Positions 18,228 through 48,888 of a stretch of DNA of 64,000 bases are shown one piece after another. The position numbers and the translations under genes are program-made. The stretch's first letter is position 1. Every line of letters begins with the position of its first letter. A model generated the notes under the pieces. It searched no databases. It worked only from the letters and a program-made list of their open reading frames with translations, and had not been told where the DNA came from. Source of the DNA: Candidatus Saccharimonadales bacterium (GTDB lineage: Bacteria > Patescibacteriota > Saccharimonadia > Saccharimonadales > UBA4665). Location: the NCBI GenBank assembly GCA_035690865.1, contig DASSKE010000004.1, positions 67,503 to 131,502 of the forward strand, in the 5' to 3' direction.

Positions 18228-18235
18228 CCCAAAGG

Positions 18236-19930: not shown

Positions 19931-20021
19931 GTGCGATAACAAATTTTCTAGTAAGCATAAGTGATTATATAGTAGTTCCGGCCATATGAACAGCCAAAAA
20001 TGAGCTTTAGCGTGATACCAT

Positions 20022-32461: not shown

Positions 32462-33028
32462 ATGTATAAAAGGTCTATGCAAGATATCCTCTTTCAGCGT
32501 TTCGAAGGTTATCAGGATAACGATATATTTCCCGAAAATAGGCCTATTCCTGCCGGTGAACCTGTTGCGCTGCGGCAACGACTCATCGCACATAAGATTG
32601 GTGAATATGTTGGTGGTACAGCGGGTGTTATGACCAACTTGGGGTATTCTTTTGAAGCCGGCAGCGTCATGTCGGAGTGGACATTTGCCCAGAACGCGTA
32701 CCATAAAGATATTATTGACCATGAGTTTCACCGCATGCGCAACGCAGAGCGACAGGGCCACCTATGTTTGCTCCGCACACCTTTAAATGAGCATGTCTTT
32801 AAGGTGGGCGCACGTTGCGTAACAGACACCCAAGACAGAGTATTGCATATTGAAGGTGTGGGAAATTACCGTGAACCGCGTTCTATTGCTTTGATTCAGG
32901 GAATTGTCCACGCCGTGGCACCGGTGATATTTGCAGACTCTGGTAACACCGTCACGCTGAGCTTGAGCCTAAATGATCTTGGCAGGCACCTTGGCGATGG
33001 CGGCAGGCTTACGCCACTACGCCGCTAG
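32462..33028 (+). CDS. Hypothetical protein
   Basis: 188-aa ORF with no recognisable motifs. Confidence 0.45.
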   Translation: MYKRSMQDILFQRFEGYQDNDIFPENRPIPAGEPVALRQRLIAHKIGEYVGGTAGVMTNLGYSFEAGSVMSEWTFAQNAYHKDIIDHEFHRMRNAERQGHLCLLRTPLNEHVFKVGARCVTDTQDRVLHIEGVGNYREPRSIALIQGIVHAVAPVIFADSGNTVTLSLSLNDLGRHLGDGGRLTPLRR

Positions 33029-33160
33029 CATCTCCGAAGCCAAAAGACGCAAATTTGTCACTTGAGGTTATCCACATGAGCCGCGCATGCACCACCCCAG
33101 GTAATTTTTGAGGAGTATGTTATTCACAAGAATTATGTTAGCTAAATTATCATTTTGTTG

Positions 33161-33188
33161 TTGAAATTGCTAAGATTTACGCTACTAT
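33161..33188 (+). promoter_or_regulatory. Candidate sigma70-type promoter of the sorting-signal protein / exosortase-fusion pair
   Basis: TTGAAA (33161-33166), a 16-nt spacer, then TACTAT (33183-33188), in an AT-rich 180-nt intergenic region. GGAGGG SD at 33214-33219. Confidence 0.45.
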
Positions 33189-33225
33189 TGAGTAGTAATA
33201 ACAACTACAAATGGAGGGAAATGCT

Positions 33226-33705
33226 ATGTTTACACGGGTCAAAAAATGGTCAGGTACTACCACGGCCATTGTGATAGCCGCACTGGCCGCACTTATGCTT
33301 ATGGTAGCCCCAGCTACAAGGGCGGGCGCACTCCCTCCCCTCACCGACGTAACAGGTGTTGTAACTGACGAGAACGGCGACGCTGTAGGTAACGCACAGG
33401 TTTCAGTAACCTGTGGCACAAAAAACACTATGGACATGACCGACGCTAAGGGTGCATATCTGGTGAGCTTTAGTGCTATTGACTGCCCATTTGGCGCAAC
33501 CGTTAAGGTAGTTGCCACCAAGAATGGCAAGACTGGCAAGGCAACCGGTACGGTGCATGGCATAACAACCAAACTTAATATTGCTATCGTAAATGTTCAG
33601 ATTCCTGAATATGGTCTGATTGGCAGTCTCGTGGCTGGCGGCCTTGGTATTGGTGCAATCAGCTTTTACCGTCGCCGAGCAGTAACCAATGGCTCTACTA
33701 TATAA
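33226..33705 (+). CDS. Secreted Ig/CarboxypepD_reg-like protein with a C-terminal PEYG-TM-RRR (PEP-CTERM-like) sorting signal
   Basis: Signal peptide (TTTAIVIAALAALMLMVAPATRA). The GVVTDENGDAVGNAQVSV...TDAKGAYL segment is beta-sandwich-like. The tail is IPEYG + LIGSLVAGGLGIGAISFY + RRR. Start placed 6 nt after GGAGGG. Confidence 0.7.
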   Translation: MFTRVKKWSGTTTAIVIAALAALMLMVAPATRAGALPPLTDVTGVVTDENGDAVGNAQVSVTCGTKNTMDMTDAKGAYLVSFSAIDCPFGATVKVVATKNGKTGKATGTVHGITTKLNIAIVNVQIPEYGLIGSLVAGGLGIGAISFYRRRAVTNGSTI

Positions 33706-33722
33706 ATGAAGAGGACCAACCG

Positions 33723-35933
33723 TTGAGATTTGTGTCTAAGGCTACCGCTCCGCTTATTTGGCGGACGGTAGCTTTTATTGGTATTTTTGGGATACTTTCG
33801 GGAGTCTTGGGCTCGCAAATTATTGCCGGAGGCATCGTTAATCGCGATGGCTTCGCGATATATGGCGGCCTTGGCAAAGCGATGATTTTTGGTGTCATCG
33901 CTTTTCTGTTGGTAATACGGGGACATCGCGCGATAGGTCTAGAGGAATGGAGGCGCCAGCTTTTTGGCTGGCTGTTGTTGAGCATTCTTTGCGGGCTAGC
34001 GGCCTGGCAAGGCATACAAATGTTACTTGTTCAACAAAGTACTGCGGCAACGTTTCTGGTGCACACCAGTATAGTGGTCGCCATTGCTTGTGCATTCCTT
34101 GGAGTTTTTGGATTGCCAAACACCCGAAGGCTTGTGCGCGGCTACCAAAAGGAGTTATGGCAGGCTGCGGGTATTGCAGTTGGATTTTATGTGCTTTTGC
34201 AGTTGGTATATAGCTTATGGCGGCCGTTAGCTGGTGTTGTTATCCATAGCGTGGCCTGGCTATTGAGTAGCAGTCACGTACCCGTTGATATAATTGCCTC
34301 AAACGTCCTTGTAACGGATAAGTTTGGCGTAACTGTCGCGCAGTATTGTTCTGGTGTAGAATCCATTGCCTTATTTAGCGGCTTGTATGCAGTCGTGGGC
34401 CTCCTTGACCGCCCTCGACTGAATGTGCGTCGTTATATAGGTGTATTTCCTATTGCTCTGCTAGGATTGTTCCTGCTAAATATCATAAGAGTGTATGCAT
34501 TAATTGCGGCAGGCTACTATTATAACCCTGAAATTGCGTTTAGCCTCTTTCATAGTTATGCGGGGACGCTCTTTTTTGTGCTTTATAGTATTGCATTTTG
34601 GGCAGTTGCTTACAGGTATATTACGAACAGAAGCATAAAACCGGTTCCTGATAGCCGAGGTGGCACTGGAGGTGACCCACAAAGAGTGCTTATTTCGCAT
34701 GTATATTCGAGCGACAATAAGGGCGATGCGGCACTCACCAGCGTGCTGATTGCTGATATACGCCGTATATTCCCCACAGCGACTATAACAATTGCAAGCC
34801 TGGAGGGCACTTCGGGGCAGACATTTGAGGGTGTGCCTGTAGAGACATCATTTATGGCCTACGCTCTTAGTGGCTACAGGAACAACATAGCAAAGCTAGC
34901 ATACACAGCGTACATGGTGCCAGCCACAATGCTCTGGGCGGTTCTGTATAGGCTAACAAAACATGATATGTGGTTACCCAGCCATATCCGTCGCGTAACA
35001 CGCCTGTACGCCAATGCTGACCTTATTGTACCTGTGGGCGGAGGGTATTTGCGTAGTCGCCCGGGGTTACGTAACCGGCTAAACGTTCCCCTATTGCTCC
35101 ATCCGTTGATTATTGGTCGCCTGCTGCAAAAGCCTACTGTGCTGTACGCTCAGTCGGTGGGGCCTTTTCAAAATCGTGCCGAGGAGCAGCTCGTTGCGTG
35201 GGTGTTGCGTCGGATGTCGTGTATTTTGTTGCGCGAAGATCGCTCGCTAGAGCTCTTGCGTAAGCTTGGCGTGCATCGGGGAGTCCACCGTGCCGTGGAT
35301 TCTGGTTTTTTACTGCAAAGTACCGCTCCATCACGAGTTCGTGAGCAATACCATGTCCCTAAGAATAAAAGACTTTTGGGTGTTACGGTGCGCTCATGGC
35401 TCAGTGGTAGAGCTCAACAGCGCTACGAAAAGGCAGTAGCAAGTGCGCTGGACGTTTTTATAAAGGAGTATGATGCGCATGTCATTTTTATCCCGCAAGT
35501 TACAGCTGCCAAGGGTGATGATGATCGAATTGTCGCCCGGCGCGTGCAAAAGGCAATGCGTCGCAAAAAGAACGTTACCGTCGTTGAAGAAACGCCCGAT
35601 CACCACGCTATAAAAACCATGTACGATGGTTTGGATATACTTCTAGGCACGAGATTTCACTCGGTTATTTTCTCACTTACTTCGTTAGTACCTGTGGTGG
35701 CCATTGAGTACGAGCACAAAACAAGCGGCATCATGCACGATCTGGCCCTCGATAAATGGGTTCTCCCTATTGAGGAGGTTACCAGGGATAAACTGCTTCT
35801 TCTTTTGCGAAACGTGGTTACAGATTACCAAGCCTATCAAGCAATCCTCCGCAAACGCGTCCCGCCCTACCAGGACGAGGCGCGTCAAACGGCAGAACAT
35901 CTACGAGAGACATACCAGCAAGCTATCCTATGA
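33723..35933 (+). CDS. Fusion protein: exosortase/archaeosortase-like polytopic domain + polysaccharide pyruvyl transferase domain
   Basis: aa 1-300 contain about 8 TM helices with YCSGVES (Cys209), NIIRVY (Arg256) and FHSYAG (His277), in the order expected for the exosortase catalytic triad. aa 320-736 carry SSDNKGDAALTS and GTRFHSVIF...VVAIEYEHK, typical of CsaB/WcaK-type pyruvyl transferases. Confidence 0.7.
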   Translation: MRFVSKATAPLIWRTVAFIGIFGILSGVLGSQIIAGGIVNRDGFAIYGGLGKAMIFGVIAFLLVIRGHRAIGLEEWRRQLFGWLLLSILCGLAAWQGIQMLLVQQSTAATFLVHTSIVVAIACAFLGVFGLPNTRRLVRGYQKELWQAAGIAVGFYVLLQLVYSLWRPLAGVVIHSVAWLLSSSHVPVDIIASNVLVTDKFGVTVAQYCSGVESIALFSGLYAVVGLLDRPRLNVRRYIGVFPIALLGLFLLNIIRVYALIAAGYYYNPEIAFSLFHSYAGTLFFVLYSIAFWAVAYRYITNRSIKPVPDSRGGTGGDPQRVLISHVYSSDNKGDAALTSVLIADIRRIFPTATITIASLEGTSGQTFEGVPVETSFMAYALSGYRNNIAKLAYTAYMVPATMLWAVLYRLTKHDMWLPSHIRRVTRLYANADLIVPVGGGYLRSRPGLRNRLNVPLLLHPLIIGRLLQKPTVLYAQSVGPFQNRAEEQLVAWVLRRMSCILLREDRSLELLRKLGVHRGVHRAVDSGFLLQSTAPSRVREQYHVPKNKRLLGVTVRSWLSGRAQQRYEKAVASALDVFIKEYDAHVIFIPQVTAAKGDDDRIVARRVQKAMRRKKNVTVVEETPDHHAIKTMYDGLDILLGTRFHSVIFSLTSLVPVVAIEYEHKTSGIMHDLALDKWVLPIEEVTRDKLLLLLRNVVTDYQAYQAILRKRVPPYQDEARQTAEHLRETYQQAIL

Positions 35934-37947
35934 CAGAATAGTTGAAGTTTAGAATAGCTCCGCCTTGCAACGCTTTACGCGTGGATATGGTAAAGGAAGC
36001 TTCACTGCGTGCGGAAATATAGAGGTCGGCAGCCACAGCAGAATGGTCGGCAATGGTAATAAAAAGCGGAGGACTCGCAAAAGGTCGCGAAAAGGTGACG
36101 GTTGCGATGGTGCCGGCGGCGGTAGGACTTGGCTTAACTGCCGCCGAAATTGATCCAGCAATATCCCTCACTTGCGGCATTGGATTGGCATAGCTTACCT
36201 GTTGGCCGGCCGTTACAACCGGCGGCGTTCCTACAGCCAACGGTCGCCCGTGGGAATCAATAGCTACTCCCTGAATGTTGTATGCTTGGTCCTGAAATTC
36301 AAGCAATCGAAGGTTAGAGGTATTTGTCGGCCGTACAATTGCCAGACCCCGATCGCCTTCTTGCGCGGGCTTAATGAGCATGGCAATCTTGTCGTAGGGC
36401 GCCGTATTGAGGCCCACATAGCCTTTGGCGCCATCAATTTTGAACTTGCCGCCAGCAAAACGAGCTGAGCCAGTTGATCCGATAATGCGCCAACTTTCGG
36501 TTTTATAATTATCGGCGTAACCAACGATATCCATGGCGTTAAGAGCATGTATGGCCGGCCGGGTATCGTTGTTGTCAATCTTAAAGAGGTCCTCGTGGGT
36601 TATGTCATCACGAACCCTAAAGATGCCGGTCTTGTTGATATTTAAGGTAATACCTACGCTGGGGTTGGGCGACAAATCTTCGGAGACCTCGCCTTTTGTT
36701 CGGCGTCCGCGGTTGGTAACATGAGACGCCACAAACACATTGCTGGACTCAGGTTCGGCAACCACTGCCGCTTCAATAGGATCCTGCGTCGGATAATACG
36801 TGCTAAGCTTGTGGTACATATGCGGCCCGCCCTGAAAAATATGCACCAACGAATTTGCCAAGTTTACCTCAGCGCCCCATTGCATGTAAATATCGGTCAT
36901 AAAAACGTGCGTTCCCCAGTCTTCGATAGCATCCAGTGGTTTTACAACATCGGGGTCGGCGGCCATGAGCGCCATATATAACTGGCTCACATATATAAGA
37001 GTGCTCCCTGGCATGATCTGAAAAGCTGATCCCGACAGGCGTCGACTCTCCATTTTGCATGAAACAAAAAAGAAGCCGTTAAGCAGATGCGGCGATCCAT
37101 TAGCCGCACCGTGTAAACAAATGGCACCGTTGCGGAACCCTTCCCAGCGGCAACCCAAAAAGTGGATCTGATTACAGTTATCTTCTCCGTAGCCAAAGGT
37201 ACCCTTTGGCAAACTATTGCGAAAGAGTGTGGCCGGCTCGGTCACGGAGCCGCAGTTCTCCCAGCTACAGTTATAGAATCGGGTGTCCCAAACCTCTACA
37301 AAGTCCATGGCAGTACCGTTGGCATACCGAAAACTTACGTCGCGAAATACGAAGTTATCTGCAAAGTATACGCGGAGAAGTACGCCGGGCTGATAGTCGC
37401 CTGTGAGCATAATATTGGTGAGCGAACCAAACTTAACATGTCCGTCTACACTAAAGCTGCCGCTAAAGTCGATGAGAGGCTCGCTACCACTAAGCCGGGC
37501 AATTCGTGAGCCCCAACGGGCCTCGCCGGTAATAGTAATACCATGCCGGCGCACTTTAAGCGTGGTTACTTTGTAGGTGCCACGCGGCACTTCAATAACA
37601 CCACCATTCTCTACGGAGTCAATAGCTGCCTGGATTGCGGCTGTATCATCTGTTACGCCATCACCCTTGGCTCCAAAATCCAGCACGTTGACGCGTAGTC
37701 GAGATTTAGCACGTAAAACACTACCCACGTCTTTCCAGACTAATCGGTCATCCTCATTGGTAAGCACGAGGTCGCTGATATCTTGTGTTGTGGCATTCTT
37801 TACATCGAGATCCCAAAGTGTAACAGAGTGAGCGGGAATGCTCTCGGTGCGCTGCGTTCCATCTGGATTGTGCGAGACCAGCAAATATTCATTTAATAGT
37901 TCCGCCCATATATTATCGTCACTCCCCGGTTGCGGCAATCTTGCCAT
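35923..37947 (-). CDS. Right-handed beta-helix protein (pectate-lyase superfamily / GH28-related, depolymerase- or tailspike-like)
   Basis: VNVLDFGAKGDGVTDDTAAIQAAIDSVENGGVIEVPRGTYKV is the Pectate_lyase_3 N-terminal signature. The N-terminus NIWAELLNEYLLVSHNPDGT resembles tail-fibre-type heads. No signal peptide. Confidence 0.75.
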   Translation of the reverse strand: MARLPQPGSDDNIWAELLNEYLLVSHNPDGTQRTESIPAHSVTLWDLDVKNATTQDISDLVLTNEDDRLVWKDVGSVLRAKSRLRVNVLDFGAKGDGVTDDTAAIQAAIDSVENGGVIEVPRGTYKVTTLKVRRHGITITGEARWGSRIARLSGSEPLIDFSGSFSVDGHVKFGSLTNIMLTGDYQPGVLLRVYFADNFVFRDVSFRYANGTAMDFVEVWDTRFYNCSWENCGSVTEPATLFRNSLPKGTFGYGEDNCNQIHFLGCRWEGFRNGAICLHGAANGSPHLLNGFFFVSCKMESRRLSGSAFQIMPGSTLIYVSQLYMALMAADPDVVKPLDAIEDWGTHVFMTDIYMQWGAEVNLANSLVHIFQGGPHMYHKLSTYYPTQDPIEAAVVAEPESSNVFVASHVTNRGRRTKGEVSEDLSPNPSVGITLNINKTGIFRVRDDITHEDLFKIDNNDTRPAIHALNAMDIVGYADNYKTESWRIIGSTGSARFAGGKFKIDGAKGYVGLNTAPYDKIAMLIKPAQEGDRGLAIVRPTNTSNLRLLEFQDQAYNIQGVAIDSHGRPLAVGTPPVVTAGQQVSYANPMPQVRDIAGSISAAVKPSPTAAGTIATVTFSRPFASPPLFITIADHSAVAADLYISARSEASFTISTRKALQGGAILNFNYSVIG

Positions 37948-39208
37948 ATAAGGCCTCCTTTACTATGTTTACCTTGGGTTGCTTAGCGAATATAAGTCCA
38001 GTAACAATAGAGCCAATATTTCCGGCCAACCAGGCCCAACCAATTGCCGAAACGCCCAAACTGGGCAAGCCTACATACGAAATACTGAGTATCAGAAGGG
38101 CATAGACGGTATTCATAGCAATAATCCCGCGCAGGTTCCTGGTTATTTTAAAGATAACGCCCAGGGCGGAATAAGCGGCAACGGGCAATGCACTAAGCGT
38201 AAGAAGCTGCAATATGCCCCTACCCTGTTCGGCATAATCCTTGCCGAAGAATCCAAGCACAAAGCTGCTGCTTGCAAACAAAATTACCATAGCGGGTACA
38301 AGAAGTACGCCGATAAGTTTAGCTGCTTTGCGTAAATGTAACGAAAAAGCTGCTTCGTTATGCGAGCCTTCGGCAAAAGCAGACTGCATGGCTGCATACG
38401 AAATGGTATAGAGTACGCTTGCGATGGTAAAGCTGATGTAATAATAAGCCGCGTTGTCGGGGCGGAGTGAATGGACGATAATAAGCGGCACCAGCGTTGG
38501 CGGCAGTAGGTTAAGCAAGCTTGATATATAGACCGAGAACGAATATCGCTGCACTTTTTTTAAGATTGCACTGTCGATACCAAAAGTTGGCTTGTAGCCA
38601 AATTGCCGCCACAACGCAGCGAGGCTGCATAACAGCCCTACTAGTTGCGATATGCCTGCGAGCAGAAAAATGTGCATAGCACTGGGGTGTATCCAGAGTA
38701 AAGGTAGTACCACTTTAGCTGCGCCAAAGAGAATATTGATCGATAGAATAGTCAGCGCTTTTTTGTGGGCTAAGAAAATGGCATTAGTCAGAGTGTTCAA
38801 CGATGTAATAACGGTAAAGAAAACGAAACTAGCACCATACCACCAATGATGCGTCACGAAGGAAAGGCTAGAACTGACTGCCGGAAGGATAAAGACACAA
38901 CCCGCTGATAGCACAGCGCTCGTAACGGACACTACTGTTAAGCTACTGCGAACGTGCGCCTGTGGGTTCTGGGCTCCGGGCAAAAAACGCACCAATGTTG
39001 TATCAAATCCTGCCAGTCCAAGCAGTGAGACCAGGCTAGAGACAGCAAGCAGTGTTGTGGCGACGCCTACTGTACTGCTAGAGTACGCGTGAGCGACAAT
39101 TGTCCAAAAAACAAAACCAAAGCCGGCCAATGCGCCCGTGGCTAGGAGCAAGAGGAGCGAATTTGTCAGCTGGGTGCTGTTACGCAACTCTGTCCATATG
39201 CGCATCAT
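37919..39208 (-). CDS. Oligosaccharide/polysaccharide flippase (Wzx-like, MOP superfamily)
   Basis: 429 aa, about 12-14 TM helices, N-terminal pattern typical of polysaccharide biosynthesis (Wzx) proteins. Overlaps both neighbouring genes. Confidence 0.75.
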   Translation of the reverse strand: MMRIWTELRNSTQLTNSLLLLLATGALAGFGFVFWTIVAHAYSSSTVGVATTLLAVSSLVSLLGLAGFDTTLVRFLPGAQNPQAHVRSSLTVVSVTSAVLSAGCVFILPAVSSSLSFVTHHWWYGASFVFFTVITSLNTLTNAIFLAHKKALTILSINILFGAAKVVLPLLWIHPSAMHIFLLAGISQLVGLLCSLAALWRQFGYKPTFGIDSAILKKVQRYSFSVYISSLLNLLPPTLVPLIIVHSLRPDNAAYYYISFTIASVLYTISYAAMQSAFAEGSHNEAAFSLHLRKAAKLIGVLLVPAMVILFASSSFVLGFFGKDYAEQGRGILQLLTLSALPVAAYSALGVIFKITRNLRGIIAMNTVYALLILSISYVGLPSLGVSAIGWAWLAGNIGSIVTGLIFAKQPKVNIVKEALYGKIAATGE

Positions 39209-41448
39209 TGGAAGACTCCAGTATTACCGGTACTGTAAATTTGATTTCGTAGTTGTTGGTAATACTCAAGTGGAAAAGTCATTACAATCGGACTACTGTC
39301 GTAATAAACATAAAACTTTTTTTGCTGCATTTGTGCCTGGTCGAGGTACACATAGCTTGACGGTAGTAACTGACTGGGCAAAATATCTTTATCACGATAG
39401 GGATAAAGCGGCGTATGCATCGCTGCCTTGGCGAAGTTTGCAGCCCGTACATCATCACTTGGGGCAAGTGAACTTTGCAGCCAGGCGTATGCCTGGAGAT
39501 CGGCCTGCGTCGTGTAATAAAGTCCGTAATACAAACCGTAATTATTGAGGCTGAGGTTAGGACTTGTACCGCCTAGGCATTGCGAGAACCAGTTAGTGAA
39601 TAGTAAGAAAAGAAACACCACAAAAATGCTGGTTGCAGAAGTTCGTACTCTGCGTGATGCCCTTTGTCCTGCATACATAATGAGGAGTATCATCGGTACG
39701 ATGAGAATAATCATTCCCTGCTGAAAAGCCCGCAGCACGCCATAGTTAACCGAAATAGTCGGCATAGCAACCATAAGGCCAATAAGGGCGAGGCTTGCTA
39801 TGCTCAAGAACAACATGTCCTGAGGAATAATCGTAGTCCTCTTTACTACCGTCCTATACCACAACAGCACGGCGCCCCCTACGGCGAGCAGCTGTAGCAC
39901 TTTAGCAAAGGATTGCCGAAGTATGGGTATGCTGCTGGCATTAATGCCTACTCGGCGTAAATCCTTCCCGAGCCTCGTGAGCGGAATGGTGTCGTTAGTA
40001 ATTTGAGGCATATATTCGGCGGCCAAATTCGACTGCTGCGAACGTGATATATAGTCATCGTAAAGATCTACCAGTGAACGGTTATTGGGCAAGAATAACG
40101 AGGTCGAGACGTCGACCGACCTATTATCGTCCGAAAGCATAGTAGGGATATTCTTAATTGAGCTGGTTAGGGTGCTAGTTAGGGCGCCAGAAGTGGCGGT
40201 GATGTGTGCATTCCAAATAAATGCCATGGCAATGAGCATTACAATGACTGAAAACGAAAAAACACTTTCTTCGTCAGGAAGAGGTTGCTGCTTGCGCCGC
40301 AGCCAGGCTTGCAGCAGGCACTTAGCGCCGTACGCCACGGCAGCTATCCCTACAAGTAAGTACGCCGTGGAGTAATGCGAAACGATAACGCCAAACGATA
40401 AAAGTAAAAAGAGCTGTTTAGAGCGCCCCGTCTTGCGGGGATGAAGTGCTACATATACCGCCAATGCTAAGAAAAAGTATGCCAGGCCCTGGCGCGTGAG
40501 CATAGCAGCATCGTTGATAAAGGTTGGATAGCAAATAAAAAGCGCTACCCCAAGCAACGCTCCTAGCTTTGGAACATACCGCCGTAATAGCATAAATACG
40601 GTGACGGCACAAAGAGCAAACGGTACCTGCATAAAAACTTTAAATACCATTTGACCGGATACGTGTAGTAATGTTGTAAGCGTATGAGGCAAAATGGTAA
40701 TACTCAAACAAGAATTATATGGGTCGCGGTACATGGTAATATCCCAGTGCTTTAGAATATTTGTCATGGCAAACACATGAAATTCTCGGGCAATATCATG
40801 TCCGCTAATGTCCCAGCTTCGCAAAGAAGTCATGAGCAAGATGCCGAGACCTATGGCAAATATCCCGATTGCTAAGCTGGCATCACTTATGTGCCGCCGC
40901 TGTATACACGCGTATAGCAAAAGGAGTGCCATAACGAGTATGGCTAACATTGCAACAGCGTTGTCGCCACCGTTATTGAGTCTATTGGCGCCAAACATTG
41001 CTAATAGTGGTACCGTACATGCTGCAATTGCAAAGATAGCTGTGGGCCGAGAGACAGTGGGTCGGGGCCGCGTGGTGAGTGTAAGAAGCCCCTGTCTTTG
41101 TATCCCATAACAGATGCAGCCAATGGTCAGTAAGTTCCAGCTTATCCACAGAGTTGATAGAGTTAGGGGCTGCTCTACGCCAAGGCTGAACAATAGTTGG
41201 TTAACAACAAAACCACATAGCAAAAGCAAAAAGAATCCCAGGCCCGCCCCAAACAGACACACCTCCAGCGGCGAGCGCAGGGGCAGCCGCAAGCCATACA
41301 GCAAAGCAAATCCTGGTAGTAATACAAGGCTTACAAAGCCCAATATCTGCGCCGGCCAAATGCCAGATTGCGCTGCCCATAGCAGCAAGTTTGCTATTAA
41401 AAGCCAGATGCCAGCAATCAGCCCTTGCCCTTTTATATTTACTTGCAC
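39205..41448 (-). CDS. Large polytopic membrane protein, GT-C/DUF2206-like (candidate glycan polymerase or glycosyltransferase)
   Basis: About 750 aa with more than 14 TM helices, a soluble loop and a C-terminal soluble region. The GTG at 41448 overlaps the upstream gene's stop; the ORF track extends to 41499. Family assignment is from recollection only. Confidence 0.6.
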   Translation of the reverse strand: MQVNIKGQGLIAGIWLLIANLLLWAAQSGIWPAQILGFVSLVLLPGFALLYGLRLPLRSPLEVCLFGAGLGFFLLLLCGFVVNQLLFSLGVEQPLTLSTLWISWNLLTIGCICYGIQRQGLLTLTTRPRPTVSRPTAIFAIAACTVPLLAMFGANRLNNGGDNAVAMLAILVMALLLLYACIQRRHISDASLAIGIFAIGLGILLMTSLRSWDISGHDIAREFHVFAMTNILKHWDITMYRDPYNSCLSITILPHTLTTLLHVSGQMVFKVFMQVPFALCAVTVFMLLRRYVPKLGALLGVALFICYPTFINDAAMLTRQGLAYFFLALAVYVALHPRKTGRSKQLFLLLSFGVIVSHYSTAYLLVGIAAVAYGAKCLLQAWLRRKQQPLPDEESVFSFSVIVMLIAMAFIWNAHITATSGALTSTLTSSIKNIPTMLSDDNRSVDVSTSLFLPNNRSLVDLYDDYISRSQQSNLAAEYMPQITNDTIPLTRLGKDLRRVGINASSIPILRQSFAKVLQLLAVGGAVLLWYRTVVKRTTIIPQDMLFLSIASLALIGLMVAMPTISVNYGVLRAFQQGMIILIVPMILLIMYAGQRASRRVRTSATSIFVVFLFLLFTNWFSQCLGGTSPNLSLNNYGLYYGLYYTTQADLQAYAWLQSSLAPSDDVRAANFAKAAMHTPLYPYRDKDILPSQLLPSSYVYLDQAQMQQKKFYVYYDSSPIVMTFPLEYYQQLRNQIYSTGNTGVFQ

Positions 41449-42545
41449 GCTAGAACCTCTTGATAGAGCGAAGTATAGGTGTGCTTTAGCACACTCCACC
41501 GCAGGTTATTTGCTTTCTGAAAGCCTTGTTCTACCTGCGTTTGTAGCTGCTCGGGTGTGGTGCCGAATTGCTCAATTGCTTCGTGAAGGGCTTTTTCTGT
41601 GGGCGAAACAAGTATGCCACAGTTTTGCAAATGCTCCCCCACGCCCACTACGTCTGTCCCAATTATAGGAATACGTGCCGCCATGGCCTCCAAAAGTACC
41701 AACGGTTGAGCTTCGTATAGCGAAGGCATGACAAGTACGTCGCAGTCTTTGTAAAAATCGAGGACCACCTGTCGTGGTTGCTTGCCATGTAGGGTGACCT
41801 TGCCGGCAAGCTCAAGCGTGTCGCGAAGTGCGTGCAGCTGTGCAGACTGTTCGCCATGGCCCACAACATCGAGGTGTACCGAGCGTTTGCAGCGTGCTAT
41901 GGCGCGCAACAGAGTGCCGATATTTTTCTGCTCGGTAAGTCGCCCAACTGTCAGGAGCCGTAATTGGTCGCCGTGGCCCAGGTAACGTCGCTTGCGCTGG
42001 ACCTTAAAAAAAGCTTCATCAATACCATTGCTCATAATTTGAGCATCAGCAATATTGTATAGCGACCGGACTCTCTGCTGCATAGCTTTATTGAGCACCA
42101 CCACGCGGTCTGCCCGGCGCAATACTGGCCCCAGAATATGCTTCTTGTAAAATGGCAAGAGCGCTGCCGCCGGCCCAGAAGGCTGAAAGTCAATGTGCAA
42201 CTCGGCAATAAATGGTGCATGCCGCAACATGCTGGCAAGAGCAGTTATTTCGGGGGTGAATGCCTGGCCAATATGCAGATGTACAATAGTGTGCTCATCT
42301 ATCTCGCGGCAAAGCGTCGCAAAAAAGCCTGGCATAATGGCGGCGTGACCAAACTCAAACGCAGATAGCCGTATAACTCGCACACCGCCTTCGACGGTAA
42401 CTCCCGCTGCTCCCCCTCCGACAGCCGAAGTGATAACCGTTACCTGATGTCCCCCTTTAGCAAGATGGCATGCTAGATCTTGCACAACATTCTCCTGACC
42501 ACCGAGGTGAGGCGGGTAATACGCTGTTACCTGCACAATCTTCAC
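41439..42545 (-). CDS. Glycosyltransferase family 4 (GT-B)
   Basis: VKIVQVTAYYPPHLGGQENVV and the C-terminal EAQPLVLLEAMAARIPIIGTD (EX7E region). GTGA overlap with the upstream gene. Confidence 0.85.
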   Translation of the reverse strand: MKIVQVTAYYPPHLGGQENVVQDLACHLAKGGHQVTVITSAVGGGAAGVTVEGGVRVIRLSAFEFGHAAIMPGFFATLCREIDEHTIVHLHIGQAFTPEITALASMLRHAPFIAELHIDFQPSGPAAALLPFYKKHILGPVLRRADRVVVLNKAMQQRVRSLYNIADAQIMSNGIDEAFFKVQRKRRYLGHGDQLRLLTVGRLTEQKNIGTLLRAIARCKRSVHLDVVGHGEQSAQLHALRDTLELAGKVTLHGKQPRQVVLDFYKDCDVLVMPSLYEAQPLVLLEAMAARIPIIGTDVVGVGEHLQNCGILVSPTEKALHEAIEQFGTTPEQLQTQVEQGFQKANNLRWSVLKHTYTSLYQEVLACK

Positions 42546-43645
42546 AAGACCCTCCGGTAAAGGTCGAGTGCTGTCTGCGCCACCGACGGCCAGGCAAAGC
42601 GCTCTGCATGTGCCCTGCCTTTTTCTTGTTTTTGCACGCGCAACTCTTTGTTGGCCATACAAGCGAGCATGGCCTGCTTGAGTGATTCAGCATCGGCGAC
42701 GGCAGCGCTAAAAACAGCATCCTTAAAATAATCACTGCGCGCTAAGCCTACGGATGTAATAACTACTGGAAGCTGGCAAGCCCAAGCCTCTAAAAGCGTT
42801 AGAGGAGTAGTTTCGTAGAGCGCTGGAAACACGGCCGCATCTGCCGTGTTAAAGAGTCTCCGCACTTCTTTGGGGTCTTGTTGACCTATGTACTGAATGT
42901 GCTCACTCAGGCCGTATGACGTAATGGCTGATTCTATCTGCTGTTGTAGTGACCCGCTGCCTATAATGAGTACGCGAAAAGGCTGGTCGGTAGAAGCGGC
43001 GAGTAAACTTACCGCCTGGATAAGATACAAATAACCCTTTTGCTTCTCAAGCCTTCCTACGCTAACAAACGTAAATACCGCGTTCTCTTTTGGTCGAGCC
43101 TTACCATGCCAAAATGCTAGATCGATGCCATTTGGCAAAAGCTGAGCGGGCAAACCGCGCTTATTAAGCATCTGTACGTCATGCGAGTTTGGGGCAGTTA
43201 TTACCTTGGCACCGCTAAGCCGCACTAGCAAAAGCTCGCTTAAACGGCGCAATCTTGACTGCTCAGCATCGTAAAAAGTAACAATATGAAAAGTATGAAC
43301 AATCGGAATGCCCAGGCTTTTGGCGGCAAATGAGACAACGAAGGCCATATCCACTGAATGAGTATGAATAACCTGTGGCCGTTCTTTTAACAGAACCAAA
43401 AACGCTTTCCAGCCGAGCATTAATAGAGAAATAAGCCTCCGAATGGTAATGGCATCTAGTGCGCTGGATGCATCTTGCAGGCCAAAAGTGTAGACTCCCG
43501 CTGCCGGTAAAAGCTCGCGGCAGCGCGAAGTGAGAACTCGCACCTCATGCCCTGCAGCTTCTTCCTGTTCTTTGAGCTGGGATACAACAACAGCGTCTCC
43601 TCCAAGTGCCCCAGGATATTTCTTTACCACATGCAGAACTTTCAT
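42542..43645 (-). CDS. Glycosyltransferase family 4 (GT-B)
   Basis: MKVLHVVKKYPGALGGDAVVV and ETTPLTLLEAWACQLPVVITS (EX7E region). Confidence 0.85.
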   Translation of the reverse strand: MKVLHVVKKYPGALGGDAVVVSQLKEQEEAAGHEVRVLTSRCRELLPAAGVYTFGLQDASSALDAITIRRLISLLMLGWKAFLVLLKERPQVIHTHSVDMAFVVSFAAKSLGIPIVHTFHIVTFYDAEQSRLRRLSELLLVRLSGAKVITAPNSHDVQMLNKRGLPAQLLPNGIDLAFWHGKARPKENAVFTFVSVGRLEKQKGYLYLIQAVSLLAASTDQPFRVLIIGSGSLQQQIESAITSYGLSEHIQYIGQQDPKEVRRLFNTADAAVFPALYETTPLTLLEAWACQLPVVITSVGLARSDYFKDAVFSAAVADAESLKQAMLACMANKELRVQKQEKGRAHAERFAWPSVAQTALDLYRRVL

Positions 43646-45483
43646 AAATTATAGATCTCCACTTGGTCCTGCGCTAAGTTGCGCCAGTCATATTGTGTTA
43701 CTTCAGGAATGGAAACCCGGCCGGCCTGATCAATCCAAAAAGAGAGCGCTTGGGCAATATGCTTAGGGTCGCAAGGAACAATACTACCATTTTTATTTGG
43801 CTCTATGAGATGACGAGCGGCATTTGCCTCTGCATTTGTGGTGACCACAGGCGTCCCACAGCCTAGAGCTTCGAGCGTAACGATGCTAAAACCCTCCCGC
43901 ACCGATGGCAGGCAAAATACGCGGGCAGCTTTCATGTAGGCGTATATATCCTCAGCCCGCGCGAGCGGTTTCAAGAAAGTAACGTTGTCCGCAATACCTT
44001 GTTTTTTTGCTTGCTTGCGAAGCCGTTGCTCTTCCAGACCGTGGCCAATAATGGTGCAGCGTACCCCCGGATTACGCCCGGCAATGATGGATACGGCGTC
44101 AAATAACCGATCTATATTCTTGTCTTTTACCAGTCGGCCAACATATAAAATATCTGTTTTTGTATCCGCCGGCTCAATGTCTTCAAGTAATTGCAGGTCG
44201 AGGCCTGACGCAACAAGCCCCACGCGATCGATGCGTCCATGAATATTTGCCAGTTTTTCTTTAGTATGGAGTGAAGCAGCGGTTATAGCATGGGGGAGCC
44301 GGACACTCATCCGCTCAATGAGTGCTGCAATGTAGCCGCTTTTTCCCATGTACTCAGTCCAATCTTTGGATGACAGAGCTTCGTGCCACGTGCCGTAAAG
44401 ACGCAATCTCCTTAATTTGCAAACGATCCAAGTAGTTAAAATAGGAAAGAACGGCATGTGGTCGACATCAAGAACATCGAAACGCACCCGGAATAAACGG
44501 AAACAAGCTAGGCTAAACATACAAGCCTCCCGAATGGTGCGTCGATTACCATGATACATCTCGTAATGTTTACAGAGTGCATGCAGCTTGACGCCATGCT
44601 CAATTCGGGTCTTTTCGGGTTGCTTCCACCACTTCATGGTGTAAATATGTACGTCGTATCCCATGCGGACAAGCTGTTTAGAAAGCTCATGTAGGCGTTT
44701 TTCTTTGCCGCCCTTAAAGTAGGGATAAATAGCATCGCTTACAAATACAATTTTGCGTATGGCAGAAATTTGCTTGGGGCGCCAGAACAAGTTCCCCATG
44801 AGCATATGTAGAATACGCGAGCCGTCATGTACTGGCCGAAGGTTTGATTCTCCGGCACGAGGATGATAACTCACAGGGACAGAGGTCATGCTTAGGTTGA
44901 GCCTGGCCATTTTAGTGACCATTTCCATCTCTATAGCAAAGCCGCTACTCGTAAGGTGCGGATAAATAATGTCGAGGGCTTCTTTTTTCCACGCAAAATA
45001 ACCAGTTAAAACGTCTGTTACGTTTGCCCTGTACAGCGTTCGTACGGCATTGGTAAAAAACCAGTTGCCCAGGCGATTAAATGTATTCATGGCATTATCA
45101 CATATATGACCGCCCAAACGCGTGCCAACAACAACGTCACAAAACTGATTTTGCAATGGCTCAACCATGCGTGGTAGTTCCGAAGAGCTGTAGGTGTCGT
45201 CGCCATCCAGCATAACAACGTAATCAACTGTTTTAGGAAGCGCCCGGAAACCTGCTCGCAGGGCGTAGCCCTTGCCTTTTTGCCGCTCAACGATTACGGT
45301 GGCCCCGGCGTCCTGCGCAACCTGTGCCGTATTGTCGCTCGAGTTATTGTCAACGACATATACGGTAACGTCAAAGCCATCTTGCGCGAGTTTGCTGCGC
45401 GGTATTTTTTCGATTACCTGCCCAATGCCGGCTGCCTCATTGTGGCACGGTATAACCACTGCAATCATCTGCCTCTTGCTCAT
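43642..45483 (-). CDS. Bifunctional glycosyltransferase: N-terminal GT2 (GT-A) fused to C-terminal GT4 (GT-B)
   Basis: N-terminus: IAVVIPCHNEAAGI, VVDNNSSDNT, VVMLDGDDTY (DxD). C-terminus: IVFVSDAIYPYFKGGKEKRLHEL and REGFSIVTLEALGCGTPVVTT. Confidence 0.85.
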   Translation of the reverse strand: MSKRQMIAVVIPCHNEAAGIGQVIEKIPRSKLAQDGFDVTVYVVDNNSSDNTAQVAQDAGATVIVERQKGKGYALRAGFRALPKTVDYVVMLDGDDTYSSSELPRMVEPLQNQFCDVVVGTRLGGHICDNAMNTFNRLGNWFFTNAVRTLYRANVTDVLTGYFAWKKEALDIIYPHLTSSGFAIEMEMVTKMARLNLSMTSVPVSYHPRAGESNLRPVHDGSRILHMLMGNLFWRPKQISAIRKIVFVSDAIYPYFKGGKEKRLHELSKQLVRMGYDVHIYTMKWWKQPEKTRIEHGVKLHALCKHYEMYHGNRRTIREACMFSLACFRLFRVRFDVLDVDHMPFFPILTTWIVCKLRRLRLYGTWHEALSSKDWTEYMGKSGYIAALIERMSVRLPHAITAASLHTKEKLANIHGRIDRVGLVASGLDLQLLEDIEPADTKTDILYVGRLVKDKNIDRLFDAVSIIAGRNPGVRCTIIGHGLEEQRLRKQAKKQGIADNVTFLKPLARAEDIYAYMKAARVFCLPSVREGFSIVTLEALGCGTPVVTTNAEANAARHLIEPNKNGSIVPCDPKHIAQALSFWIDQAGRVSIPEVTQYDWRNLAQDQVEIYNL

Positions 45484-45992
45484 TGTGTCCCCCTCTCTTT
45501 GGACGCTAGGCTTTTGTTCGTTGTTATGTAATGAATCGTTTCAGTCTGCAAGTGTGATGGGTCCGATCGTGCCTGTTGTACCTGCACCGACACAAAAACT
45601 CGCTGCGCTTCTACAGATGGCATGACAACTTCTTTGACAAGAGATCTTTGCTGGCCTTGTGTCAATAGCAGACTGCCCGTTGTTGCTACGCGTGCGCCAA
45701 CGTTTGAACGTACCGTTACACGATAGGTGTATTGTTTGGTTGCATGCTCAAGGTTGCGAATAGTAAACTGTACTGTTTGCTTACCATCTGGCTCGAACGT
45801 CCGAGGAAGCTGGGCTGGGTTGGTAAAATATACCTGTGTGAATCGTTCCGGCTCTGGCAAAAGCTGCCAGCGATGGAGTTGCTGGGTAATGGGAGCTGCA
45901 AAAAAGTAGATGAGGCCAATACCCGTGAGGGTAGCACTGCCGAGGGCTGCATAATATGTTGGGCGGATGATCACGGCAACTCTCCTTGGCAC
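45480..45992 (-). CDS. Membrane-anchored hypothetical protein (DUF1616-like C-terminal domain)
   Basis: One TM helix, then FTQVYFTNPAQLPRTFEPDGKQTVQFTIRNLEHATKQYTYRV, which resembles the TEFY...V.N.E....Y pattern I recall for DUF1616. First gene of the minus-strand operon. Confidence 0.5.
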   Translation of the reverse strand: MPRRVAVIIRPTYYAALGSATLTGIGLIYFFAAPITQQLHRWQLLPEPERFTQVYFTNPAQLPRTFEPDGKQTVQFTIRNLEHATKQYTYRVTVRSNVGARVATTGSLLLTQGQQRSLVKEVVMPSVEAQRVFVSVQVQQARSDPSHLQTETIHYITTNKSLASKERGTQ

Positions 45993-46093
45993 AGTAGCTC
46001 AAGTTTAGCTTTATATTTTGTGCCAACTTTGTTTATGGTACAACGTTGAATAGAATATAACAATGTATATATAAAGAAAGTTCTATAATTTGT

Positions 46094-47263
46094 ATGAAAA
46101 AATATAGTATATGGGGAAAAGTCTGGGCCGTGTGCCTGCTTGCAATGATAGTAAGCAGCAGCAATCCCACAGTATATGCAGCAAATCCTAATGAAAGTGG
46201 CTTTGCCACCGGCACGACACTTTTGTGGCTTACACTCACTGAGCGCCAGGCGTATCTGGACGATGTCCAGGCACTCGGTGCAAAGTGGATACGTATAGAT
46301 TTTAGTTGGGCCGAGATACAGCCACAAAACAGAACGACGTACAAATGGCATGCCTACGATGCGGTGGTGCAAGCTGCGCACGCCCGGCACCTTAAGGTAC
46401 TAGCGACGCTTGCCTATACACCCGACTGGGCAAGCGATGCCAAATGCCGCGAGATATCGTCACAGAGTCCAGCATTGCGGCGCGCCTGCAAGCCTCGGGT
46501 TGCGGCAGACTTTGCTCGTTTTGCCCGGGCAGCCGTGCTGCGTTACAACCTGCAAGGTGTGTACGCCTGGGAGATTTGGAATGAGCCAAATCTAACCGGC
46601 TACTGGCGATCCATCGACCAGTCGGGACGTGTTGTAGTGAGTCCGGCAGACTATGCGGAGATGGCTAATTTAGCAGCTCTACAGATAAAACATTACGATC
46701 CTGGCGCGGTAGTCATTGCAGGAAGCCTGGCTCCATTGTTCGAGGCGCATCAGCAGATCGGCATGCGGCAAAGTGATTACCTCACGCAGCTTCTGCCTAA
46801 GTTGGAGCGCCGGCTTTTTGATGGCATTAGTGTTCATCCATACTGTTGGCCCAAGTCACCGGCCCGTCAGGCGATTTACAATGGTTTTTATACTGTTGAC
46901 AACGGCCCAATCTCATATAATTTACGCAAGATTATGGACCATAGCGGCTGGGGCAACGAAGCTATCTGGGCGACAGAGTTTGGAGCAAGCACGCGCGGCA
47001 AAATACCCGAAGGGGCAGCTGCGGCCGCCAAAGGGCACCCCCGCCCCGACCACGTTAGTGAGGCTAAGCAGGCGCAGATTATTGCTCAGGGCTTGCAGTT
47101 ATGGCGAACAAAACAACGCAACGGCCCCATCTTTTTATATTCACAGAGTGATGAATGGCTTACGCACGGCGGCAACAGTAACCAGCGAGGATATGGCCTG
47201 CGGCGCCAAGATGGCAGCAAAAAGCCCGCCTATACGGCTGTATACAGCGCCCTTCATCACTAG
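46094..47263 (+). CDS. Secreted glycoside hydrolase family 5-like (cellulase superfamily, clan GH-A)
   Basis: Signal peptide, then YAWEIWNEPN (acid/base NEP motif) and IWATEFGAS (nucleophile Glu). Confidence 0.8.
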   Translation: MKKYSIWGKVWAVCLLAMIVSSSNPTVYAANPNESGFATGTTLLWLTLTERQAYLDDVQALGAKWIRIDFSWAEIQPQNRTTYKWHAYDAVVQAAHARHLKVLATLAYTPDWASDAKCREISSQSPALRRACKPRVAADFARFARAAVLRYNLQGVYAWEIWNEPNLTGYWRSIDQSGRVVVSPADYAEMANLAALQIKHYDPGAVVIAGSLAPLFEAHQQIGMRQSDYLTQLLPKLERRLFDGISVHPYCWPKSPARQAIYNGFYTVDNGPISYNLRKIMDHSGWGNEAIWATEFGASTRGKIPEGAAAAAKGHPRPDHVSEAKQAQIIAQGLQLWRTKQRNGPIFLYSQSDEWLTHGGNSNQRGYGLRRQDGSKKPAYTAVYSALHH

Positions 47264-47748
47264 TTTGTGCAAGCCTGAAGGTCGTCAAAAAAGCCACCCA
47301 CAAAACCTAGCTCACCGCTTTGTGCTTTGCTGTAGAGTTCGGCCTGATGCACGTAATCGGTCCAGGCTACTTCGCGCGGATTTTGCACAGTAGGTGCCTC
47401 AGTTGCCTCGCCAACAAACAGGTAACGATAACGCCCATACTCATTTAGCCCCTGGCCTACCAGCCGAAGATTAGTAGGCGTAACGCCGGTTTCTTCTTGT
47501 GATTCACGGAGTGCAGCTTGCTGGGGACTCTCGCCCGACGTAATGCTACCGCACACATGATCAATATCACCAGGATTAACTTTTTTGTGGTGCGAGCGGG
47601 CATGCACAAGCACATGGTCATCTTTAAGTATCACCACAATCACAATCGGCATATAAAGGTTGGTATACTGAGCGGCGTCGTCCCGTGCTATATGCGTACG
47701 TACGATTTGCCCTTTGTCGTTCACCAGGTCGATATATTCAGCCACCAC
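47260..47748 (-). CDS. NUDIX hydrolase
   Basis: Canonical Nudix box GSITSGESPQQAALRESQEETGV. Confidence 0.88.
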   Translation of the reverse strand: MVAEYIDLVNDKGQIVRTHIARDDAAQYTNLYMPIVIVVILKDDHVLVHARSHHKKVNPGDIDHVCGSITSGESPQQAALRESQEETGVTPTNLRLVGQGLNEYGRYRYLFVGEATEAPTVQNPREVAWTDYVHQAELYSKAQSGELGFVGGFFDDLQACTN

Positions 47749-47823: not shown

Positions 47824-48888
47824 ATGATAGCAACCTCAGAGATACCACGCACAACAATAACCATGCATCAAGTAGGCAGCTTTCCGGCTGCAACAGTAGA
47901 AGAAGGTTTACAACGAACCCTGAACCGGCAAACGCGTACGGTTTTAGATTCTGCTACCGACTGCGAAACCGGCTCGCGAGCCAACTGGGTTGTAGATCTT
48001 ATAGACTCCTACCGCCGTAATCCAGCATTTGAGCTTGTAGAAGATGGTGACTGGTCGGGATACGACCACTGCCCTCGCTTTAAGGTGGCCGAAGGTCACA
48101 CGCTAGTGCCGGACGATTTTGCCTTGCCCTACCATCAGTTTGCGCTTGATTCCTGGCCCGCTTTTGACGCTGCCCGCCAGCGAATCGGCCGCCCGGATCT
48201 GCTCATGCAGGTTGGTTCGCCTAGCGGCCTTGATTTGTCACTTTTCACCCTTGGGGAGCAGCAAGGCTTTGACGAGGAACATGTTGACGCAGCCACCCAA
48301 GCCGTAGCTGATCAAATTACTGCCGTCCATAATGAGCCGTTTGGCGACCAGGTAGTGTATCAGTTAGAGACGCCGGCCAGTTTGAGTTTGGCACTGGCTG
48401 TGGAAGACCCTGCTTTTCGACAGGGATTGTCCAGCCGCTTGCTTGATTTAGTGTCGCGTTGCCCCGAAGGTGCTCAGTTTGGTATTCACTTGTGCGTGGG
48501 CGACCTTGGCAACGAGGCCCGTATGCAGCCGCCAAATCGCAAAGCATCCGTGGAACTCATGAACGCCATTGGCAGTGATCCCCGCTGGGAGGGCCGCAAG
48601 CTGCGCTACATTCATGAGCCAATTGCCGCAGGTCACGATGTACCAACGCTAGAAAGTAGCATGTACGAAGATTTGCAGGATCTGCGTCTGCCTCCCGGTG
48701 TGCGCTACATAGCTGGCATGCTTCACGAGCGCCAGTCGTTGCGCCGTCAGCGAAAGGTGCTGGAGCTGGTTAAGGAGAACTTGCCACAGGGACAGGCTTT
48801 AGGTATTGCAGCGGCTTGCGGTCTGGGCCGTCGTTCGCGCAATGCGGCTAAGCGTATCCGCAACCGCGGCGTACTTCTTGCTTCTTAG
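47824..48888 (+). CDS. Hypothetical protein, possibly MetE-like (cobalamin-independent methionine synthase / UROD-type) TIM barrel
   Basis: FGIHLCVGD (His-x-Cys) and AAACGLGRRS (Cys-Gly-Leu) mirror the spacing of the MetE C-terminal domain zinc ligands. Otherwise unassigned. Confidence 0.4.
   Translation: MIATSEIPRTTITMHQVGSFPAATVEEGLQRTLNRQTRTVLDSATDCETGSRANWVVDLIDSYRRNPAFELVEDGDWSGYDHCPRFKVAEGHTLVPDDFALPYHQFALDSWPAFDAARQRIGRPDLLMQVGSPSGLDLSLFTLGEQQGFDEEHVDAATQAVADQITAVHNEPFGDQVVYQLETPASLSLALAVEDPAFRQGLSSRLLDLVSRCPEGAQFGIHLCVGDLGNEARMQPPNRKASVELMNAIGSDPRWEGRKLRYIHEPIAAGHDVPTLESSMYEDLQDLRLPPGVRYIAGMLHERQSLRRQRKVLELVKENLPQGQALGIAAACGLGRRSRNAAKRIRNRGVLLAS

Follow-up and report, generated by a model that had tools for sequence, protein, structure and literature searches.

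A chain of seven overlapping minus-strand genes in Candidatus Saccharimonadales bacterium (assembly GCA_035690865.1), converging on a gene for an exosortase-pyruvyltransferase fusion, appears to encode a surface-glycan pathway that is built on a polyprenyl monophosphate carrier and needs no phosphoglycosyl transferase, a reading to which we give a probability of roughly 0.55. The window analysed here is the whole stretch of 64,000 nt between positions 67,503 and 131,502 of the forward strand of contig DASSKE010000004.1, which is contig 4 of a 1.19-Mb genome (98.6% complete) from the Candidate Phyla Radiation (CPR)/Patescibacteria. The chain encodes a DUF1616-like membrane protein, a fusion of a GT2 and a GT4 glycosyltransferase, two separate GT4 enzymes (GT4b and GT4c), a large DUF2206 membrane protein (GT-C), a Wzx-type flippase and a beta-helix protein (Table 1), and Pfam and NCBIfam reproduced the domain calls that an earlier note on this DNA had made for the whole chain.

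In a survey with one genome per GTDB species, relatives of the GT-C protein were found in at least 176 species of Patescibacteria (Saccharimonadia, Paceibacteria and others), Actinomycetota (among them Pseudonocardia thermophila DSM 43832 and P. asaccharolytica) and Chloroflexota (Ktedonobacteraceae). Gene neighbourhoods were counted at 80 GT-C loci from these three phyla, of which 54 are long (at least 20 kb). Of the 54 long loci, 52 have a Wzx gene near GT-C, 51 a GT2 of the polyprenyl-phosphate class, 44 a GT4c ortholog (at least 140 bits) immediately upstream of GT-C, and 37, across phyla, a GH5 glycoside hydrolase gene. The DUF1616-like gene (22), the pyruvyltransferase (16), the beta-helix gene (7) and the exosortase with its substrate (6) are found near GT-C less often. 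Moreover, gene fusions join players that would act consecutively: of the 61 loci among the 80 that have a GT2, 15 have it fused to a GT4, GT4c is fused in frame to GT-C in one public protein (P0103), and exosortase and pyruvyltransferase are fused in nine protein clusters. Because of the GT2-GT4 and GT4c-GT-C fusions we prefer the variant of the pathway in which the GT4 enzymes extend the product of GT2.

The GT2 domain and the search for a starter

The GT2 domain occupies residues 1-230 of the GT2-GT4 fusion and carries a DxD motif at D93-D96, the fused GT4 (residues 244-613) has kept its EX7E motif, and the motif and transmembrane (TM) scan found no TM segment in the fusion protein. The NCBIfam family closest to the GT2 domain is archaeal AglJ, followed by a haloarchaeal dolichol phosphate (Dol-P) hexose transferase (98 bits), mycobacterial PpgS and ArnC, all below their equivalog cut-offs, and in a PDB sequence search the closest solved structure was the Pyrococcus furiosus DPMS (5mlz), with ArnC (9bhc) matching too. 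AglJ, the Dol-P hexose transferase, DPMS, PpgS and ArnC all load a sugar onto a polyprenyl monophosphate. Judged by its sequence, the GT2 domain is a putative member of this polyprenyl-monophosphate hexosyltransferase class, without being an AglJ equivalog, and would either prime a chain on the lipid monophosphate or supply the donor for GT-C. Such a domain can answer the gap that had made the pathway look as if it were simply missing its starter.

The local absence behind that gap was seen again. Searches with Pfam, NCBIfam and genome-wide profiles place no phosphoglycosyl transferase of the WbaP or WecA type, no nucleotide-sugar gene and no Wzy polymerase in the locus. In the rest of the genome, the only WbaP-type gene (PF02397, at C3:34777) and the only Wzy_C gene (C3:61936) are on another contig, and the single PF00953 gene, presumably MraY, is on contig C1; genes for sugar-nucleotide supply (one GDP-mannose-pyrophosphorylase-like and two GalU-like) are likewise found elsewhere. 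Among the 41 nearest genomes WbaP is present in 39 and Wzy_C in 40, irrespective of the cluster, and GT-C in 7. Since both genes are near-universal they do not co-vary with the cluster, and since they are paired about 2 kb apart in several relatives (at least six by coordinates) and present whether or not the cluster is there, we regard them as a separate housekeeping pathway. Around the 80 GT-C loci, single-query tblastn searches of limited sensitivity found a WbaP-like gene within 10 kb of GT-C at one locus, and MraY/WecA-like or Wzy_C-like genes near GT-C at none. An overlooked local starter was rejected on these grounds, as the searches of the genome, the relatives and the 80 loci place none at the locus apart from the one exception. 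From the starter searches we therefore conclude that the pathway is probably built without a phosphoglycosyl transferase, with a polyprenyl-monophosphate GT2 as its near-constant companion. It shares the Wzx flippase with the Wzx/Wzy-dependent pathways, whose initiating phosphoglycosyl transferase and co-varying Wzy_C polymerase are not at the locus.

In one relative (G010) a second PF00953 gene of the MraY/WecA type lies at C2:14879-15370, about 5 kb from the GT-C cluster; among the relatives nothing else hints at a local starter of the diphosphate type.

The distant WbaP and Wzy_C genes could still be given a part if the locus were a decoration system of the GacIJKL or Gtr type, where GT2, a flippase and GT-C would add a single side-chain sugar to a backbone that the GT4 enzymes and Wzx build on undecaprenyl diphosphate, with WbaP as starter and Wzy_C as polymerase. 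The genome has exactly one gene of each, it has three ligases of the LCP (LytR-CpsA-Psr) type, and decoration systems with three or four components are widespread among monoderms (PMC10821137). However, WbaP and Wzy_C occur in about 40 of the 41 relatives with or without the cluster and stand as a unit of their own in the six or more relatives mentioned above, 79 of the 80 GT-C loci have no starter nearby, and the gene that has been welded to GT-C is GT4c and not a backbone polymerase, so we hold this arrangement to be very unlikely. Genes for LCP wall-polymer ligases occur almost throughout the order and show no co-variation with the cluster; one of the three is at 18236-20029 (minus strand) in the window, 16 kb from the cluster.

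The DUF2206 membrane enzyme and the proposed route

The GT-C protein has about 13 or more TM helices and a small C-terminal alpha/beta domain. It matches Pfam DUF2206 (PF09971) with 42.3 bits, above the cut-off of 35.6 and aligned only over profile positions 3-87 of 368, and its Pfam match to PMT_2 is weak. In a set of 14 control genomes DUF2206 was matched only in the archaeon Methanosarcina acetivorans, and going by sequence similarity the protein is a divergent bacterial branch of this archaeal-seeded family. No PDB match was obtained by sequence search. An AlphaFold2 (AF2) model built from 30 homologs (pLDDT 77, pTM 0.81) had AftA as its top Foldseek match, with STT3, DPY19, AglB, ArnT and ALG9 among the others; the 14 matches at E<=0.001, like all of the first 20, are GT-C_A enzymes working with polyprenyl-(P/PP)-linked donors, and no transporter match rose above noise. 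The model thus identifies the protein as a putative GT-C_A-fold glycosyltransferase and not one of the Wzy/WaaL type. In the homolog alignment D218 and E222 are invariant and D213 nearly so, within the motif WDIxGHDIxRE. This motif is in the first long loop, and judged by the positive-inside pattern of its neighbouring loops the first long loop would be outside the cell. The earlier note had proposed that a GT-C-like protein takes the role of polymerase or ligase, and had reckoned with the possibility that it belongs to a transporter family. The fold search gave GT-C_A enzymes instead of transporters, and the predicted fold and a step that is very probably outside the cell agree with the proposed role, except that the resemblance is to GT-C_A and neither to Wzy nor to WaaL.

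In the route that we infer, from the carrier and the order of steps to the sugars and the acceptor, the GT2 domain would load a hexose onto undecaprenyl (polyprenyl) phosphate at the inner face of the membrane, and the fused GT4, together with GT4b and GT4c, would extend it to a short oligosaccharide. The neighbouring pyruvyltransferase would then add a pyruvate ketal and the Wzx-type flippase would turn the lipid-linked glycan outward, where the DUF2206 GT-C may move it from the lipid to an acceptor, which could be a protein, a wall polymer or a chain that is being built. Outside the cell this transfer may be assisted by the bitopic Ig-like DUF1616 protein, and the secreted GH5 and the beta-helix protein may trim or remodel the product.

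The closest parallel is the pellicle pathway of Lactococcus cremoris/lactis, in which WpsA/WpsB make GlcNAc-P-C55 and cytoplasmic glycosyltransferases elongate it on the same lipid, and in the proposed model of which the Wzx-type WpsG flips the product and GT-C enzymes polymerise and ligate it; GacIJKL of Streptococcus pyogenes is the single-sugar version of the same logic (PMC10821137). Common to these systems and to ours is a TM-less, DPMS-like GT2, which in our locus too would load undecaprenyl monophosphate in a branch without a phosphoglycosyl transferase. The differences are that the GT2 described here is nearest to archaeal AglJ and fused to a GT4, that a bitopic Ig-like DUF1616 protein stands in place of the polytopic GacJ/WpsB activator, that the sole GT-C is from the uncharacterised DUF2206 family, and that GH5, pyruvyltransferase, beta-helix and exosortase modules have been added in a CPR host. 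What is known is the logic of lipid-monophosphate priming, a Wzx flippase and a GT-C enzyme, and what is new are the enzyme family, the DUF1616 and GH5 partners and the attachment of an exosortase and a pyruvyltransferase. Our literature search found no paper that mentions DUF2206, and none on Saccharibacteria with an exosortase or with a flippase and a glycosyltransferase.

A second parallel is N-glycosylation in Haloferax volcanii, where AglJ, AglG, AglI and AglE assemble a tetrasaccharide on a single molecule of dolichol phosphate, and AglR and AglS handle Dol-P-mannose (PMC3871713). An AglJ-like start on a polyprenyl monophosphate, cytoplasmic extension on the same carrier, a Wzx-like protein (AglR) in flipping and GT-C transfer outside would be shared with our locus, but its host is bacterial, its GT2 falls below the AglJ cut-off, its GT-C is not STT3/AglB by sequence, its extending enzymes are GT4 and not GT2, and the GH5 partner suggests a polymer. 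On another reading GT-C would be a non-STT3 oligosaccharyltransferase for surface proteins, with the IPEYG-CTERM protein as its target here. STT3 and AglB are indeed among the best structural matches, AglJ is the family closest to the GT2 domain, and a dedicated small secreted protein and a sortase are embedded in the cluster. As no STT3 family was matched in Pfam or NCBIfam, so that the resemblance to STT3/AglB/PglB is at the level of fold only, as no WWDYG-type motif was seen, as 48 of the 54 long loci have neither sortase nor substrate, and as the GH5 partner fits a polymer better, we consider protein glycosylation highly improbable.

Mycobacteria and corynebacteria assemble lipomannan and arabinan with a machinery of Ppm1, PimA/PimB, AftA and the Mpt enzymes. 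It has in common with the present locus a GT2 polyprenyl-P-sugar synthase, cytoplasmic GT4 enzymes and an outward-facing GT-C. On this pattern the GT4 enzymes would glycosylate a glycerolipid anchor in the cytoplasm, the anchor would be flipped, GT-C would polymerise outside from single polyprenyl-P-hexoses made by GT2, and GH5 would trim the product. Several observations point in this direction: the top Foldseek match AftA uses a polyprenyl-P-monosaccharide donor, the best PDB matches of the GT4 enzymes are PimA and PimB and NCBIfam lists glycolipid-anchor GT4 families for them, the near-constant GH5 suggests a polymer, and the cluster is common in Actinomycetota. Nevertheless we judge a lipoglycan to be unlikely. 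The GT4 similarities are generic for the family, flippases of the MOP/Wzx type are not the known glycolipid flippases, the fusion of GT2 to GT4 is easier to reconcile with consecutive steps on one lipid, and CsaB-type pyruvyltransferases act on lipid-linked oligosaccharides. The locus also differs from the mycobacterial machinery: GT-C has no sequence relation to AftA/Emb and is clustered with Wzx and GH5, and no genes for a phosphatidylinositol anchor were identified here.

Turning back to the monophosphate-carrier pathway, a number of points weigh against it. Sequence alone cannot tell the extension of the GT2 product by the GT4 enzymes from the synthesis of a separate acceptor. The best NCBIfam match of the GT2 domain, AglJ (TIGR04182), reaches 177.1 bits and stays under the equivalog cut-off of 325, and Wzx flippases classically act on diphosphate-linked units. 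The Foldseek TM-scores of the GT-C model are moderate (0.36-0.47), its family is without any biochemically characterised member, and there is one GT-C here against separate polymerase and ligase enzymes in the lactococcal model. A polytopic activator like GacJ/WpsB was not found at the locus, the architecture of the DUF1616-like protein being different, and a scan of 33000-47500 for promoters and terminators gave counts no better than shuffles.

If the pathway works as proposed, an envelope glycan is made in many single-membrane bacteria along an archaeal- or lactococcal-style lipid-monophosphate route that bypasses the phosphoglycosyl transferases by which glycan loci are usually found. The unassigned DUF2206 GT-C family gains a testable role, and some of its carriers, strains of Pseudonocardia, can be grown in culture for such tests. 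The surface of CPR episymbionts mediates contact with the host, and for them the locus would be an accessory surface locus of variable occurrence (7 of 41 relatives).

The exosortase, its substrate and the pyruvyltransferase

The exosortase has kept the catalytic residues C209, R256 and H277 and the TIGR04178 signature (58 bits, cut-off 23), and its best NCBIfam match is XrtE (VPEID-CTERM) with 80.8 bits against a cut-off of 150. The gene directly upstream encodes its substrate, a beta-sandwich of about 100 amino acids (aa) with a C-terminal IPEYG-TM-RRR signal, and in a genome-wide motif census this was the only protein of the genome with a motif-TM-basic tail; in relatives the signal reads IPE[YF]G or VPELG. 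As in the exosortase/PEP-CTERM systems we find a Cys-Arg-His core, a tripartite motif-TM-basic signal and adjoining polysaccharide genes, but the host is a monoderm CPR bacterium, there is a single substrate with an IPE[YF]G motif, the pyruvyltransferase is fused or adjacent, and the partner pathway uses a GT-C enzyme and not Wzy or a synthase.

In two genomes of the same genus, G003 (locus L011, about 300-760) and G004 (locus L012, about 17900-18400), a second small secreted protein with a SIPEYG/NIPEYG-TM-basic tail is encoded between the exosortase and pyruvyltransferase genes, and two substrates flank the sortase there, against one substrate and a fused enzyme here.

The earlier note had suggested that the glycan might be the acceptor or partner of the adjacent sorting system. 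A genuine genomic partnership was found, as all five exosortases among the 41 relatives adjoin a GT-C cluster and the six exosortase-bearing loci of the wider set all carry the substrate. Three further exosortase contigs, chosen because their link to the cluster was not known, are arranged in the same way; two of them have DUF2206 no more than 10 kb away, and in the third a beta-helix array runs off the fetched flank. On the other hand 48 of the 54 long loci have no sortase, and because of this we regard the glycan pathway as autonomous and the sortase as an addition made in one Saccharimonadales lineage. In that lineage the exosortase would process one small IPEYG-CTERM beta-sandwich protein that is genomically tied to the glycan.

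Two other exosortase-bearing contigs, L098 (7155-9371) and L100 (7133-9295), have on the opposite strand, shortly upstream of the substrate gene, a response regulator (Response_reg and Trans_reg_C) and a histidine kinase. The pair may regulate the sortase and glycan locus specifically; it is not at this position in the window. On the exosortase/DUF2206 contig L099 (10950-12337) a GtrA-like small flippase and a GT2 stand beside the exosortase, in addition to Wzx, and some variants of the cluster therefore combine both flippase types.

In most relatives the exosortase and the pyruvyltransferase are separate adjacent genes. That the fusion is an assembly artefact was rejected, because eight further fused protein clusters with 52-58% identity were found on independent contigs. 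The pyruvyltransferase is CsaB/WcaK-like and scores 118 bits against the CsaB equivalog cut-off of 213. A CsaB/WcaK-like pyruvyltransferase in a monoderm wall-glycan locus recalls the CsaB/SLH anchoring of S-layers, but only one of the 41 relatives has an SLH domain (PF00395), and this genome has none. The classical reader of pyruvylated wall polymers is therefore absent, and the CsaB/SLH anchoring idea was rejected.

One may speculate that the exosortase cleaves the IPEYG-CTERM protein and links its new C-terminus to the pyruvylated glycan or the lipid-linked precursor of that glycan, and that marking of the acceptor by the pyruvyltransferase is the reason for the fusion or adjacency of the two, although we regard such a covalent link as decidedly doubtful. 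If it exists, it would make a glycan-anchored surface protein in a monoderm CPR bacterium, and a 1.19-Mb genome with a single sortase, substrate and pathway would offer a minimal system for the question of exosortase attachment. The strict genomic tie to an exosortase with one substrate, and the repeated fusion of exosortase and pyruvyltransferase, make the locus a compact system in which the exosortase acceptor can be addressed.

The gene chain, its conservation and its neighbours

As the earlier note had described, the seven minus-strand genes from 45992 down to 35923 are chained by overlaps, and the junctions measure 4, 4, 4, 10, 4 and 29 nt. The 3' end of the operon and that of the exosortase-pyruvyltransferase gene overlap by 11 nt (35923-35933), also as described. 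A crude longest-ORF (open reading frame) count gave overlaps at about 23% of the 737 co-directional junctions of the genome, so that six in a row are unusual and speak for a tight operon-type chain and not for the genome norm. A single transcript across the operon is likely.

Table 1 Features of the glycan locus and the adjoining genes in the window.
Feature	Coordinates	Strand	Basis
DUF1616-like bitopic membrane protein, 170 aa; first operon gene	45480-45992	-	ORF map and start-codon survey
GT2-GT4 fusion, 613 aa	43642-45483	-	Pfam, NCBIfam
GT4b glycosyltransferase, 367 aa; EX7E motif present	42542-43645	-	Pfam Glycos_transf_1 and Glyco_transf_4
GT4c glycosyltransferase, 368 aa; EX7E present, GTG start after GGAGG	41439-42545	-	Pfam
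GT-C/DUF2206 membrane glycosyltransferase (putative), 747 aa	39205-41448	-	Pfam, AF2 model; same start in public protein P0001
MOP/Wzx-type flippase, 429 aa	37919-39208	-	Pfam, TM scan
Tailspike/pectate-lyase-like beta-helix protein, 674 aa	35923-37947	-	Pfam PF12708
Exosortase-polysaccharide pyruvyltransferase fusion, 736 aa; convergent with operon	33723-35933	+	Pfam, NCBIfam
Exosortase substrate: signal peptide, beta-sandwich, IPEYG, TM, RRR	33211-33705	+	Sequence, genome-wide motif census
Secreted GH5 glycoside hydrolase; divergent from operon	46094-47263	+	Pfam Cellulase, signal peptide, catalytic motifs

The genes are not scattered in related genomes, an outcome that would have spoken against the unit. 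In three relatives the whole block is syntenic, comprising the substrate, exosortase, pyruvyltransferase, one to three beta-helix genes, Wzx, GT-C, GT4c, GT4b, GT2-GT4 and the DUF1616-like gene; GH5 is also present in those three where the fetched window reaches, and the flanking genes of our window are absent from the three loci. The pyruvyltransferase is within the cluster in six of the seven GT-C-bearing relatives. The seven-gene chain thus stands as part of a functional unit, but its extent had been drawn too narrowly, since the pyruvyltransferase, the secreted GH5, the exosortase and the substrate travel along. A 354-aa ORF at 47824-48888 was tried as a synteny anchor for same-genus genomes without the cluster and failed, the gene itself being accessory and elsewhere unlinked to the cluster.

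The DUF1616-like protein consists of one TM helix (residues 11-41) followed by a seven-strand Ig-like beta-sandwich outside the cell (AF2 pLDDT 90.6). It scores 21.3 bits against PF07760 (cut-off 31.6), and 18 of 24 aligned orthologs match the profile (best E-value 7e-11), which is covered only in the beta-sandwich part. Foldseek returned only generic Ig/Fn3/MG domains for the model. The gene adjoins the GT2 gene in the 24 aligned loci and is directly upstream of it in most of those compared by coordinates. A role as activator of the GacJ/WpsB type was rejected on architecture, one TM helix with an Ig-like domain against the helical WpsB with three TM segments (PMC10821137).

The presence of a MOP/Wzx flippase in the pathway, which the earlier note had called, is borne out by a match to Pfam Polysacc_synt_3 (39.3 bits, cut-off 23) and at least 10 TM segments; a PDB sequence search gave no match for this protein. 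Orthologs of GT4b in close relatives are 48-52% identical.

The beta-helix protein is lineage-specific, with one to four tandem copies in relatives, and resembles pectate-lyase-like enzymes, its PDB matches being 7chu, a beta-1,3-glucanase and AlgE epimerases. Its beginning (about residues 75-145) matches the tailspike, tail-fibre and pre-neck-appendage families of phages in PHROGs, and it has no TM segment in the hydropathy scan and no evident signal peptide. It is probably a glycan hydrolase, lyase or epimerase.

The GH5 protein has a signal peptide and the catalytic motifs NEP and TEFG. Between its gene and the operon lies a 100-bp AT-rich divergent spacer (45993-46093) with a TATAAT at 46084-46089, 4 nt before the GH5 ATG. 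The GH5 start is not preceded by a Shine-Dalgarno motif, and its mRNA may be leaderless or nearly so.

Farther away, at 59593-63999 on the plus strand, a surface protein of more than 1469 aa that is open at the window edge contains two PA14 domains, GLEYA domains and a weak B_lectin match, and may be a further carbohydrate-binding envelope component in the neighbourhood.

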